Positions 13,321 to 55,725 of a DNA stretch of 64,000 nt are shown here, one piece after another (position 1 is the first letter of the stretch; every line of letters begins with the position of its first letter). The notes beneath the pieces were generated by a model. That model worked only from the letters and a program-made list of their open reading frames with translations. It did no database searches and had not been told where the DNA came from. Made by a program: the position numbers and the translations under genes. Origin of the DNA: Eledone cirrhosa (Eukaryota); assembly GCA_964016885.1 (NCBI GenBank), contig OZ024742.1, forward strand, positions 38,688,001 through 38,752,000, written 5' to 3'.

Positions 13321-13516
13321 TAGAAGTGGTTACACAACAGTTAGTTCACCATACCGAGAACAATTGTTTCACCGTATTACGAGGTGAGGATCCGCTAAGG
13401 TGAAACAATTGTTCTCGGTATGGTGAACTAACTGTCGTGTAACCACTTCTACCTAATCCGTCCCATGGACTGAGTGCTCTACCACTACGGATATTACCTT
13501 CCAGTGTTCCACCACT
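13321..13516 (+). mobile_element. Fold-back PLE derivative with hammerhead remnant (family of 41821-43883)
   Basis: Arms 13321-13372/13399-13451; cgag-GUGAGGA-ucc.gg-GAAACAAUUGUU-cucg (C3 mutated); tail ends ccagtgttccaccac then (TA)n. Confidence 0.8.
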
Positions 13517-13595
13517 ATATATATATATAGAATTAATACATCTACCAACATATGCGTACAGATGTACACTAATACTAGTAAATATATAAGTTATG

Positions 13596-14262
13596 TCAAA
13601 GTACATCATGCCTCATAGGTAGATAGTACCGCGATGACATCTTTTGACAGCTGCTGATGACATGGGTGATATCATCGATGTTAGTTCTGCAGAGTCTGCA
13701 CTTGTTATCACATCTAGGTGTTTTGCCTGCATCCCTATCTCTTTTGTGAATCAAGTATTTCGTGTTAATCTCCTGTTCTTTGATTGCAAAAGCGTATCCT
13801 TCAAAGTGGGAGCCAATATAGCGGTTGTTGGTCCAAGATAGATTACTTTCCTTATCTATATTACTCTCACTCTGGAGCTTCCTGGCAACATATCCATGCA
13901 TGATTTTTTGCTGATAAGTATGCAGATTTTCATCCATGGATTCACTGCGATACTGCTGAGCGACTTCCCTGGGTGTGAGTTTTTGATTATCACACAGGGA
14001 ATATCTCTCAAGGAGTTCCTTCCCAACTCTCATGATCTTATCTGTTTCATGCAGATAGACTTGCTCGAGAAACGGGCTCCTACGCTTCGAGGTTCGTAGA
14101 TGTTGTCGGAGAGATATGATGCGACATTCAAATGTTGTCTGGACTGATGTTAGGCCTCTGCCTCCCTGCTTACGTTTCAAGTAAAGGCGGTCTATGTCAC
14201 TGTTGATGTGGAAGTTTCCGGTGTTGTTTAGTATTTTTTGAGTTCCAACATCAACTGCTCGG
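13596..14262 (-). mobile_element. R4/Dong-like (RLE-type) non-LTR retrotransposon fragment, post-RT region and zinc knuckle
   Basis: RLYLKRKQGGRGL...KIMHG...EQEINTK...CRLCRTNIDDITHVISSC...RHD; adjoins (TACA)n. Confidence 0.85.
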
Positions 14263-14644
14263 ATGTATGTATGTATGTATGTATGTATGTATGTATGTAT
14301 GTATGTATGTATGTATGTATGTATGTATGTATGTATGTATGTATACACACACACACATATATATATGTGTGTGTGTGTATCTGTGTTATCGAGTGTGTGT
14401 GGTTATGTGTTTTCATGACTTTGCTTTGCATCTGACATATCATCCTTATTTTACATCCACCTTCCATATTAGCATATGTTGGACAGAAAGACCATATCTT
14501 GTTCATACGTTCCATATTTGGCATGGTTTATATGACATGTAAGTGTCATATAAACCATGACATATGGTTTATATGACACTTTATATGTCATATAAACTAT
14601 GACATATGTCTGGATGCCCTTTCTAACACCAACGACCTTATGTA

Positions 14645-14915
14645 GACTGGGTGCATTTTGCTGTGGCATCACCACTACCATTTTACAGAGCGTATTGGGT
14701 GCATTTTACTGTGGCACCACCATTACCATTTTACAGAGCGTACTGGGTGCATTTTACTGTGGCACCACCACTACCATTTTACAGGGCGTACTGGGTGTAT
14801 TTTAGTGTGGCACCACCACTACCATTTTACAGAGCGTACTGGGTGCATTTTTCTGTGGCACCACCACAACGGTTTTACAAAGCATACTGGGTGCATTTTA
14901 CTGTGGCACCACCAC
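14645..14915 (+). repeat. 48-bp minisatellite, about 5.5 copies
   Basis: Unit actgggtgcattttactgtggcaccaccactaccattttacagagcgt. Confidence 0.9.
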
Positions 14916-51574: not shown

Positions 51575-52700
51575 TTATAAATTAAAAATAGTTCTGAACG
51601 TGGAATTTTGGCGATGTTTGCAAGAAGAAAATAATTCTGTTCTGAGATTAATAGTTTTGACAGTTAATTATATAAAAAATGTCTTCGATACACAATTTAC
51701 AGAATCTTGATAAAGCCGTAATTCGGTACGCAGGTGCTTTCGAAATCGTTCTCCAAGATATTGAATTGTCTATATTGTTGTCTTTTAAATTCCAAATTAG
51801 ATGTGAAAGTGAAGTAGAAGATTTTTTATCAGATCTCCTAAATGTATGATTATGGTTATTCCAGCGTTCTTTAAATTTTATTGATGTGGCACCAACATAG
51901 TTAAACATTTTTTCACTAGTTTTAACTGTGCATTTATAAACTATGTTTTTGTCTAAACAATTATTTTGTAAAGGGCAGTTTTATTTGATTCTACAGTTAC
52001 ATTTACTGGAGTTATTGTTGTTCAGAACGGTACTATTATTCTGAATATTGTTGTTAGAAATATCATTATTGCTATTTTGGTTAGTTTGGTTAGGGTTTAA
52101 ATTTAAGTTTCTATTATTAATTCTATTTATATTTTGTGCTATGTTTATAGTAGTAGAGTAGGATAGTTTTATAGTGTGTCTGTTAAAAATAGAGTGGTAT
52201 CTGTGGGCTTTAGGAAAACATTTATCTAGTGCTTTAAAGAATAGCTTTGCTAAAGGTGTTTTAACGCTTAATGAGAATGGGGGAGAGTACCAAATAATAT
52301 TTCTAGTTCTAGTTTTTTTGTTTGGTTTAGTGTTTAAGTTAATACTAGGATGATATATCATGTTATTGTTATCTATGTATTTAATTCTATTTGTATATCC
52401 TGCTCTATGTAAAGCTTCATTATAATATTCAGCCTTATCATCAAAAATATTTTTATTACCGTGTTGGACGCTATTGACAATAGTGTTTTTAATACTTCTA
52501 GGATGATTAGAATTGAAACTTACATAATTTAGATTTTCGTTAATTTTATGGAAAGGATAGTTAAGACCTGTGCTAAGGTTTAAAGTTACATCTAAGAAGT
52601 TAACGATTTTGTAGTTATTCTCCATTTCTAAGTTAAGATTGTAGTTGTTGAAAAATTGTATTATGGATTTTCTTTTCCTATTAATTTTACTATTGCTATG
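51575..52700 (-). pseudogene. PLE RT C-terminus and GIY-YIG endonuclease
   Basis: VNFLDVTLNL, SNHP, IIWYSPPFS, CNCRIK*NCPLQNNC..IVYKCTV..YVGAT..FKERWNNH..CKLCIED; in-frame TAA at 51981. Confidence 0.9.
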
Positions 52701-53359
52701 GTTGAACAACATTTTTTAATCCACAAATTGTTCTACTCTCACAACTTGAACCACCTATTTTTAAGTAAAATACAAAATCAACACCCTTCGTAACTCATAT
52801 TTGATATATAAACAACTAATACATACGCAATTTATTAATATATATATAGATATTTATATACATATAACCTATCGTAATGTAATAAGATACTTACAACCAT
52901 AATTCTTCATATAATCTAATTGATTATATATACAATATTATAACTCATAATATAGGTAAATAAATTTTTTCCCCCAAATTAACGTAAATGCTGGCTCTTC
53001 TTCCTTTCTCTTCTTTCCTACGCATACAATAACTTATCATAATTATTTAAATTTTCCATAGTGTCTAAAATAACGTTTTTTTTTCAGCCCTTTTACCTAA
53101 ACCTCATTTGCATCTTAATAATTTAAAATATCTGACTTTTCTTCTCTTATCCCTTCACTATCCAAGGATAATTTGAACCGTTAAGGTATATTCTCCTTGG
53201 TTAAGTCAAAATTTATAAAACACACTTCGTATTTTATCTGATGATAGCGTGCCAAAACTTTGGTACCCTTGAAATATATATAATAGAATAAATATGGTTT
53301 TATAAATATAGTTTCCATTTATTTAATATCATTGTATATATGTATATATATATATATAT

Positions 53360-53945
53360 AGTAATAATAATAAAACTGAAGACTAAAATCCAAAGAGGGC
53401 TCGATAAGGAAAATATATATCAAATATATAGGAACCGTAGAGCAAATATTTATTAAAATAACAGATTAAAGTTTAAGCAAAGAATCGCTGCTTTCACCCT
53501 TAACGGGATCTTCTGAAACTAACAAAGTCAATCTGTAAACGCAGAACTGGATATTTAAAAAAACGTTGCAACCGGAGGAAGACAGGAAGACGATACTTTG
53601 GTTCGTGGTAACGTTCGCTGGCAAAGAACGGGAAAAAACGAATAATACGTCATTAATAGGAGCGGTGAAAAACAATTACGCGCAAAGACAGAACCACGTT
53701 TATGGTATAAAAGAGGTCGTAGACTAATGTTCTCTTAGGTGGTGCAAAGAGACGTTCTCTGGCAATGAACGAAAAAACGAAGATAATAAGTCATATGTGG
53801 ATCGTGGAGAACAATAGCACGCAAAGACAAAACCACGTAAATGGTATAGCAGAAGTCGTAGACTAAAATTTTAACTAGGAGACCAAATGAATCTCCGCTA
53901 CCAGCGATTCTTTGCTTAAACTTTAATCTGTTATTTTAATAAATA
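53360..53945. mobile_element. Fold-back element with internal about 140-bp direct repeat (family pieces 54400-54490, 55740-55882)
   Basis: atttattaaaataacagattaaagtttaagcaaagaatcgctg at 53448 and its inverse at 53902-53944. Confidence 0.75.
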
Positions 53946-54721
53946 TATATATATATATATATATATATATATATATATATATATATATATATATACACAC
54001 ACACACATATATATATATATATGTACGGAATTCCTTCCTTGCTTACATTCCAACCAGGTTTGATGGTCTTTATTCTCTCTCGTTCACGATTTCACCGAAT
54101 TTAAATTCATAGAAATTTGGGACTTGACTTCTTCTTCCTCACTTTTCGTTGCTCACCATTTTTGTTGTTTACACTCTTGTCCCCTTTATTTACGTGTCCC
54201 AACGACTTTTTTTTAGCCGTTGCTCGCACCAACCGGAGGTATATGGTCTTTAAAGCGATGAAATACCAATGATGGTTGGAAGATCACTGATGAAGGACTA
54301 ACTTTATTCATATGTAACCCATTAGCAACGCCGCAGCACGTTTATTTTCATGTATATATATATATATATATATATATATATATATATATATATATATATA
54401 TAAAAATAACAGATTGAAGTTTAAGCAAAGAATCGCTGCTTTCACTCTTAACGGCATCTTAATAAGATCCCGATAAGGGTGAAAGCAGTATAGTACTAGG
54501 AAAAACTAAATAAGAAGTTAAGATTAGAAAAGAAAAATTTATTTAGAGTTTGTTCTTTAACATGTTTAAATACAATATCAGTCTGTATATATATATATAT
54601 ATATATATATATATATATATATATATATATATATATATATATATATATATATATATATATATATATATATATATATATATATATATATATATATATATAT
54701 ATATATAGTAATAATATATAT

Positions 54722-55725
54722 ATTGTTATACTTTGGGAGGGTCATGTTGCCAATAAGAAACACACGCACCAGTTGCTTTCACTTCAATTTATTATATATT
54801 TATAAATTTATAAATTTACAAATCTACAAACTTATAAATTTCTGTTTGGTTGGTTGGTTCCACAACCAGATAGTTGTTTATATATAGTCATAGTCCTTTC
54901 GTCACACACTCTGTATAGCATAAGATGTACTGAAGGACAATGTAGAAACAAAAATATAGTGTACATAGGTGAGACAGCTCGTAGTATAGGGGAACGAATA
55001 AATGAACACTGGCGAGACCTTCAAAATAATAAAGAATCATCTGTGCTCTACCAACATGCTAAGATAGAGCACAGAGGTAGATTAGAGAACATAGAAATAA
55101 AAATAGAATCCACACACAGAAAAGATGCAATGTTTAGGCAAATTACAGAGGCAGTAAGCATAAAAGAATTACAACCAAAATTAAATAGAAAATATGAGTG
55201 GAACAGCAACATCACAACTTACAATTAAGGACAAAATGAAAACACACACAGGACAAAATGAAAACACACACACACATAGAACAAACAAGCAACCAACAAT
55301 AAATAAATAAATAAACAAATAGATAAATGAACACAAACACACACAGACACCCGGATGTGGCGCATGCGCAAACTGAGCACACAACACACACACAGAAACA
55401 AAATGGCATAGGATAGAAGAAAGGAAAGGTACAGAAACAAAGAAAGGAATCCCCAGTCACTGAAGAGGTCACAGAGTGTGTGACGAAAGGACTATGACTA
55501 TATATAAACAACTATCTGGTTGTGGAACCAACCAACCAACCAGAAATTTATAAGTTTGTAGATTTGTAAATTTATAAATTTATAAATATATAATAAATTG
55601 AAGTGAAAGCAACTGGTGCGTGTGTTTCTTATTGGCAACATGACCCTCCCAAAGTATAACAATATCGGTTTCAACACACGATTTCAGATAAAGAATCTTG
55701 GTAAACAAATTCAGAAACGAAATAA
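54722..55725 (+). mobile_element. 5'-inverted Penelope-like element with GIY-YIG ORF remnant (about 54914-55228)
   Basis: YSIRC...C...VYIGETARSIGERINEH...SVLYQH..EH...R.ITEAVSI....PKLN; 54722-54913 is the inverse of about 55472-55664. Confidence 0.88.
55455..55499 (+). ncRNA. Type I hammerhead ribozyme
   Basis: AGUCA-CUGAAGA-G-GUCACA/UGUGAC-GAA-AGGACU-A-UGACU. Confidence 0.78.

Follow-up and report, generated by a model that had tools for sequence, protein, structure and literature searches.

How does a retroelement come to be inserted as two inverted arms whose outer ends lie at two different fixed positions? This question was raised by a 64,000-nt window of the Eledone cirrhosa genome (GenBank assembly GCA_964016885.1, contig OZ024742.1; G000:C3:38688001-38752000 in the 3.0-Gb assembly). 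(TA)n was abundant in the window, and a self-comparison with simple repeats masked yielded many short inverted repeats lying between TA arrays. Four families of these repeats, A to D, were identified as Penelope-like retroelements (PLEs) inserted in (TA)n; motifs assigned families A and C to the Hydra type and family B to the Neptune type, while family D was placed by anatomy alone. The outer ends of the insertions occupied two fixed TA-bearing sites, one each, probably because both cut (TA)n ends prime on the same RNA molecule.

The arms were of two kinds, with and without a tail. The position where the tail-less arm ends on its outer side is called site 1 and the position where the tail ends site 2; negative numbers count nucleotides upstream of site 1. 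The families were labelled by insertions at 5932 and 44419/53336 (A), 10284, 30243, 35755 and 54726 (B), 13321 and 41821 (C), and 41763 and 59724 (D). The corresponding features of the window, including a motif in the pseudo-long terminal repeat (pLTR) of family C, were:

5932..6371: family A head-to-head insertion; tail-less arm 5932-6103 (minus strand), tailed arm 6106-6371 (plus strand)
10405..11257: family A relative; left arm tailed, right arm tail-less, simple repeat in the centre
44419..53336: single family A insertion; long tailed arm 44419-52715 (minus strand), tail-less arm 52701-53336 (plus strand)
9984..10284: family B head-to-head insertion; left arm tailed (without TA flank), right arm tail-less
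30243..30452, minus strand: family B tail-less arm; no partner arm detected
35755..36232: family B head-to-head insertion; left arm tail-less, right arm tailed
54726..55722: family B head-to-head insertion; left tail-less arm of 190 nt, right tailed arm of about 800 nt with the C-terminus of an endonuclease
13321..13516: family C short head-to-head insertion (locus L086); tail-less arm 13321-13376 (minus strand), tailed arm 13376-13515 (plus strand)
13384..13423, plus strand: predicted hammerhead ribozyme motif in the pLTR of family C, consisting of core, stem II, GAAA and palindromic stem/loop III
13450..13515, plus strand: 66-nt tail of family C, bounded by site 1 (after 13449) and site 2 (after 13515)
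41821..43886, minus strand: family C long insertion; tail-less arm of about 2.05 kb and inverted tail-end stub
41559..41763: family D short head-to-head insertion (locus L031); left arm tailed, right arm tail-less
59724..59917: family D short head-to-head insertion; left arm tail-less, right arm tailed

A first-pass annotation of the window had proposed fixed inversion breakpoints and twin priming on the basis of ten motifs, all of which were recovered at or within 3 nt of where it had placed them: caatgatatt at 5932 (+) and 53334 (-), aagtggttac at 13324 and 41821, ttatactttggg at 10284 (-), 30243, 35755 and 54726, and ta(g/a)gaaaa at 41763 (-) and 59724. Paired arms were present except at 30243. 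The short inverted tail stub that it had described at the far end of 41821-43886 is real, spanning 15–18 nt at about 43866-43885, with the tail-end motif at 13501 and 43869. The tail-less arm of this insertion holds broken reverse transcriptase (RT) and C-terminal GIY-YIG-type open reading frame (ORF) pieces, whereas at 44419-53336 the ORF remnant, an RT thumb and endonuclease (EN) at 51650-52715, sits in the tailed arm. The latter insertion is interrupted by a later one at about 45563-51420, with L107 and L266 collinear across the gap. In the short family C insertion, TA comes next in the template after each of the two sites; motif and helices, as read from the sequence, place the predicted ribozyme cut after 13413, and core position 3 of this copy is G.

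Are the two outer ends fixed beyond the window? Exact 25–32-nt patterns taken just upstream of site 1 matched the genome 2194 (C), 4682 (A), 24809 (B) and 13374 (D) times; reversed-control patterns gave no match for any of the four families, so that the family patterns are not due to chance. Nine same-strand family C matches at G000:C1:143338134-143785455, about 47–60 kb apart, form a large tandem segmental repeat. The 3' ends of arms fell into two peaks in each family, 61–91 nt apart (tail lengths of 91, 61, 66 and 82 nt in A, B, C and D, respectively). The predicted fixed, non-scattered outer ends were thus borne out, as was the longer tailed arm, within a narrower range than the 50–140 nt first suggested. 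The claim that one complementary DNA (cDNA) is primed at the RNA end was not supported. In long and full-length family C copies the tail passes through a TA-rich motif into leader or ORF, and 466 exact family B matches extend from the tail end towards the ORF start; site 2 is therefore not the end of the unit, and both sites lie inside a tandem unit, at TA-like motifs. A match of 2–4 nt to the (TA)n target followed site 1 in A, B, C and D and site 2 in B and C. Single-sequence folds placed a hairpin 6–7 nt after site 1 in three of the four family C copies folded, with no clearly matching hairpin after site 2 and none convincing in family B; the idea of the same hairpin behind both sites was not confirmed. 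A few arms terminated within the tail (L065, L045 and L106 in family C; L005, L018, L356 and L357 in family B), and two family C arms ending near an internal ACCAC-TA repeat at about +44 may mark a minor third start site. At G000:C1:132947045-132947576 (L312-L320), a 46-nt repeat made up of the family B tail end and the start of the leader recurred head to tail in at least 12 copies.

How strictly are the two sites paired? Family C loci were chosen by the exact pattern upstream of site 1, a choice blind to the tail. The sample of 140 loci (70 stretches, comprising most of the 75 G-variant matches, and 70 among the first 100 of 2194 C-variant matches) was reduced to 137 by removal of three duplicates; at 90 of these the inner end adjoined an inverted partner, 39 were solo, and at 8 the arm extended beyond the fetched DNA or the reference. 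A partner thus accompanied 90/129 arms whose 5' end was visible. Of the 72 pairs in which both outer ends could be classified, 71 combined a tailed arm with a tail-less one (binomial p = 3e-20); the exception had two tail-less arms, no pair had two tails, and 18 other pairs with one end interrupted or cut off were left unscored. Locus L062, with two tailed arms and a TA array between them, was scored as solo. The 39 solo arms divided into 20 tail-less, 18 tailed and 1 other. For the remaining families, uninterrupted pairs from 290 loci and the window were classified and checked by eye, four interrupted pairs being set aside; one-tailed pairs made up 24/24 (A), 22/22 (B) and 21/22 (D). Among 60 family B loci reading through site 2, all 22 with two clean outer ends had one of each kind, two further ones had a partial tail facing a tail-less end, and the read-through insertion L321 also obeyed the rule (23/23 in all). 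Altogether, 138/140 head-to-head pairs, or 161/163 insertions including read-through family B, were one-tailed, and no joined pair in the scored A, B, C and D sets was tailed at both outer ends. The one-tail rule is genuine, holds in at least two of the PLE clades of this genome and is informative about mechanism.

Do the two arms come from one template? The arms of 23 long family C pairs disagreed at 18/348 subfamily-diagnostic positions (5.2%), compared with a background of 356/6999 (5.1%) at invariant positions; random pairs would give 137.6 disagreements at the diagnostic positions. The two arms share a haplotype, and each insertion has one template lineage. Many haplotypes each formed their own one-tailed pairs, and the haplotype groups overlapped in divergence, so that the concordance does not simply reflect one master at a time, although a single master may have been active at a time within a cell. 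Family B arms were likewise concordant, except, clearly, in L321 (G000:C1:2082300-2089800), where 37/66 diagnostic sites differ between the 5' and 3' pLTRs. Between those of L341, also family B, 8/16 differ. Such differing pLTRs could derive from a master that was itself chimeric or from template switching between RNAs. An attempt to assign the inverted arm to the 5' or 3' pLTR by a pooled count (60 vs 21) was abandoned, since L321 dominated the count and the reference could have biased it; L321 was the one case that held up.

The inner junctions were private. In family C, 66/71 coordinate pairs and 33/33 short junction strings were distinct, in keeping with the expectation that inner junctions would not be identical among copies; most junctions had a few bases of overlap or filler and little or no spacer. 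The tailed arm was the longer by >30 nt in 15 of the 71 pairs and the tail-less arm in 18, the arms ending within 30 nt of each other in 38. Truncation points were variable, as had been claimed, but not independent. Arm lengths were coupled (short-short 36, long-long 28, mixed 10; Fisher p = 1.5e-10), and 7/28 long pairs ended ≤30 nt apart, compared with 1.2 by permutation (p = 2e-4). Ends were also concentrated between -72 and -77, where hammerhead stem I has its 5' edge (19/90 partner arms); 17/20 short solo arms ended at -69 to -75, their anchors being obliged to reach -68. Ends at -36 to -45, where -36 is the predicted ribozyme cut, accounted for 6/90 partner arms, and those checked at -36 coincided with a 10-nt palindromic overlap. 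These patterns suggest that a class of family C RNAs is short and starts near -74, and that both arms of a long pair ran off the same broken RNA end. An internal promoter within the pLTR has been published for Drosophila Penelope, according to the consulted part of PMC2377424. The 5' direct pLTRs of full-length family C copies do not end near -74. Asymmetry of the arms did not increase with their divergence (rho = -0.07, p = 0.75, n = 23), and pairs just 1–1.5% diverged were already asymmetric by up to about 2 kb.

What elements produce these insertions? The family C unit is short (2577 nt, i.e. <3 kb) and encodes a single RT ORF followed by a C-terminal GIY-YIG-type EN, as seen in the natural copies L034 and L049 read with their breaks. 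It has RWR and DKT motifs, a CSCRKPEAC linker and a GIY-YIG core without the cysteine pair; the pLTR has a hammerhead motif (core and three helices, by pattern and by eye), and the insertions are TA-flanked. Section 11 of PMC8557442 lists RWK and DKT motifs, a CxCX5C linker and an EN without CCHH as Hydra-clade features. By its features family C would be a Hydra-clade PLE, with cleavage by the hammerhead only predicted. The 5'-truncated family A copy, whose N-terminal part is missing, has a CxCX5C linker with an in-frame stop at about 51980, a C-terminal EN and a hammerhead core. The family B unit (about 4.1 kb) combines a CX4CxxC linker with a C-terminal GIY-YIG EN with CCHH (two core cysteines, two downstream histidines); motifs of this kind (CX2-5CxxC linker, CCHH, hammerhead) point to a Neptune-type PLE. 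The N-terminal third of its ORF (L324, L204) contains a long in-frame stretch, rich in Asn, His and Thr and variable in length, that is reminiscent of the N-rich inserts of rotifer Penelope elements described in part of PMC3846280. A hammerhead core lay upstream of site 1 in A, B and C, and the strict hammerhead pattern had no match in the short family D reference. Pfam gave no match on 5 PLE or long interspersed nuclear element (LINE) ORF pieces among the 9 window proteins scanned, including the family C pieces, and an Rfam scan gave sub-threshold matches only, with no hammerhead listed. We rejected G at core position 3 as a ribozyme-inactivating mark of the tailed pLTR; G was equally present in tailed and tail-less arms, and the idea had come from the 30 best matches, biased by the query. 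Genome counts for family C at this position were C 2194, G 75 and A+T 78, and the variants are largely attributed to post-insertion mutation.

How could such an element yield one end at each site? In the scheme that we favour, the RT/GIY-YIG protein, probably a dimer bound across the tail, would cut both target strands. One target 3' end would pair with UA at site 1 and the other with UA at site 2, and both cDNAs would copy upstream over the same RNA stretch, stopping at the RNA 5' end, at a break or earlier. Each arm would thus be a separately primed cDNA, and head-to-head joining of the two would remove or add a few bases. Loss of one cDNA would leave a solo arm of either type, and one cDNA running past a full unit would give the classical partial tandem with an inverted arm. 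The scheme requires the RT at site 2 to displace or follow the cDNA from site 1. The strict pairing, the shared haplotype and the coupled lengths are most simply accommodated by both ends priming on one RNA, and two priming events also predict that either arm can be the longer. We extend the scheme tentatively, at somewhat under even odds, to the normal integration route of EN-bearing PLEs, with a dimeric RT across the tail, one RNA and no need for ordinary second-strand priming; if so, the one-sided tails, inverted arms and solo copies of Hydra- and Neptune-type elements would all arise by one mechanism.

The evidence also has to be read against priming of both ends on one RNA. It consists of finished insertions of one genome, which give no direct view of priming. 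A haplotype common to both arms is expected whether they copy one RNA or two RNAs from the same master, the diagnostic columns of that comparison were defined on the same arms, and the family C anchors, besides having to reach -68, were half picked by a rare variant. The 38 near-symmetric pairs fit equally well a fold-back, in which one cDNA snaps back and copies itself outward while the second end is set by endonuclease cleavage or by TA annealing at the other site. Fold-back would also explain L338 and L343, where the inverted arm and the upstream direct copy end at the same base; spacer-poor junctions and a haplotype common to both arms suit it too, and related ideas are in print (self-priming in a portion of PMC3846280, EN-mediated resolution of the tail in one of PMC8557442). 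It requires, however, that one arm be contained in the other. In 18/71 family C pairs the tail-less arm reached >30 nt further upstream while the tail was in the other arm, so that neither is a copy of the other; these pairs, like the 2-kb tail-less arm with its 15–18-nt tail stub in the window, would need a later deletion, and asymmetry was not linked to age. At least for those 18, two priming events are needed, and we consider fold-back quite unlikely as the general route. In L321 the inverted tailed arm follows the 5' pLTR copy (30 sites vs 3, by alignment and panel), so that its two ends do not come from the same pLTR copy; either the two starts can lie on different copies or fold-back also occurs.

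A reading in which both ends are primed, on two copies of the pLTR-tail, takes up this last observation. The copies could be the upstream and downstream ones of a tandem or circular RNA, or belong to two same-master RNAs in a dimer; the protein, rather than the geometry of a single tail, would assign site 1 to one end and site 2 to the other. Apart from L321, it accounts for the equal inner ends in L338 and L343 and for the ten mixed short/long pairs, and the palindromic loop III of PLE hammerheads has been proposed to act in dimers in a section of PMC4209133. By itself it does not predict coupled arm lengths or long arms ending together, and the weaker cases favour the 3' copy (L340 1/60 vs 7/56, L344 0/71 vs 4/31, and L361 and L366), which probably reflects one indel-prone block. 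We regard it as unlikely, if a shade less so than fold-back. Amplification of a few founder fold-backs in the manner of miniature inverted-repeat transposable elements (MITEs), followed by central deletions, would suit the very high copy numbers and the pile-up of family C inner ends at -72 to -77. It is largely refuted, and its chances are slight: uniform short copies with a common internal junction were not found, the 33 short junctions all differ, which excludes such amplification, many haplotypes have their own one-tailed pairs, lengths run continuously from 15 nt to >4 kb and full length, and asymmetry shows no age trend. Priming of both target ends on one RNA remains our preferred explanation. 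The first-pass proposal of twin priming accordingly stands as to the fixed outer sites and private junctions; the start at the RNA end was not supported, and the variable truncation points are not independent of each other.

Six more fold-backs of other families were present in the window (16662-16894, 17224-17411, 32240-32598, 33560-33907, 56166-56467 and 63732-63998). Five had a one-sided overhang of about 100–190 nt towards a TA array and three a hammerhead-like core; they probably arose by the same process as families A–D. Different PLE families were neighbours within one TA array at many loci, e.g. L013, L024, L072, L139 and window positions 41559-43886, where D lies beside C. The 45563-51420 insertion within the family A tailed arm contains a Helitron, whose Rep and PIF1 helicase ORF pieces include stops and lie on the minus strand at 45694-50418. 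A dispersed repeat, about 190–200 nt long and resembling a short interspersed nuclear element, occurred in many copies and both orientations (8488-8650, 15827-16023, 19121-19331, 23345-24165, 44072-44260, 58036-58674 and 61819-62025), arranged head-to-head and tail-to-tail at 58048-58671. LINE-type RT remnants lay at 26887-28176 (RVT_1 match) and 13596-14402 (minus).

How do these insertions compare with known systems? L1 twin priming, reportedly described by Ostertag and Kazazian in 2001, is said to have two target 3' ends priming on one RNA and to give an inversion joined by short homology; it reportedly uses the poly(A) end and a variable internal site, with barely overlapping segments and a minority of copies inverted. 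The likeness proposed here lies in two target 3' ends priming on one RNA and in an inversion joined by short homology. The insertions studied here lacked the pattern of an RNA-3'-end primer, a variable internal site and non-overlapping segments: both sites were fixed and internal, both arms copied the same template stretch, and an inverted partner accompanied 90/129 family C arms with a visible 5' end. They may be products of a kind of twin priming that departs from the L1 pattern.

Neither the clades nor the anatomy of these elements is new, and they are unremarkable as clade members; the value of the present data lies in the counts and the single-template evidence. For EN+ PLEs, portions of PMC8557442 and PMC3846280 describe a partial tandem, an adjacent inverted 5'-truncated copy and a 30–40-bp tail, often at one end only. 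Published anatomy, (TA)n targeting, pLTR hammerhead motif and continuation of the tail into leader/ORF are the same as here in these accounts, whereas our tails measured 61–91 nt. Where the accounts call the one-sided tail "often" present or "optional" and ascribe it to EN resolution or self-priming, it was near-absolute here (161/163) and accompanied by coupled arm lengths. According to passages of PMC8557442 and PMC11167929, it is not yet settled how the inverted ends and one-sided tails arise. Separate publications cover the one-sided tail, the inverted arm, the two internal starts and the extension of both strands; we found no paper joining them, and no proposal of paired-site twin priming for PLEs, in the open-access literature.

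The closest parallel is Poseidon of the green anole. In vitro, its RT starts at two internal sites bounding the tail, both strands are cut and extended, and a dimer is predicted, according to the part of PMC11167929 consulted. Two internal starts bounding the tail, an AT-rich target and no strand preference for either site are common to both systems. That same text does not pair the two sites on one molecule or explain inverted arms, and a term search of its supplements (text only, 7,325 characters, figures not covered) gave no match. It describes the start site as non-homologous to the cut DNA, whereas the sites here showed a 2–4-nt TA match. PLEs are the closest retroelement relatives of telomerase, and their insertion route is poorly understood. 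The one-RNA, two-site model agrees with the reported in vitro behaviour of the anole element, and the measured rule of one end per site, one haplotype and coupled lengths provides a single test in that existing in vitro system.

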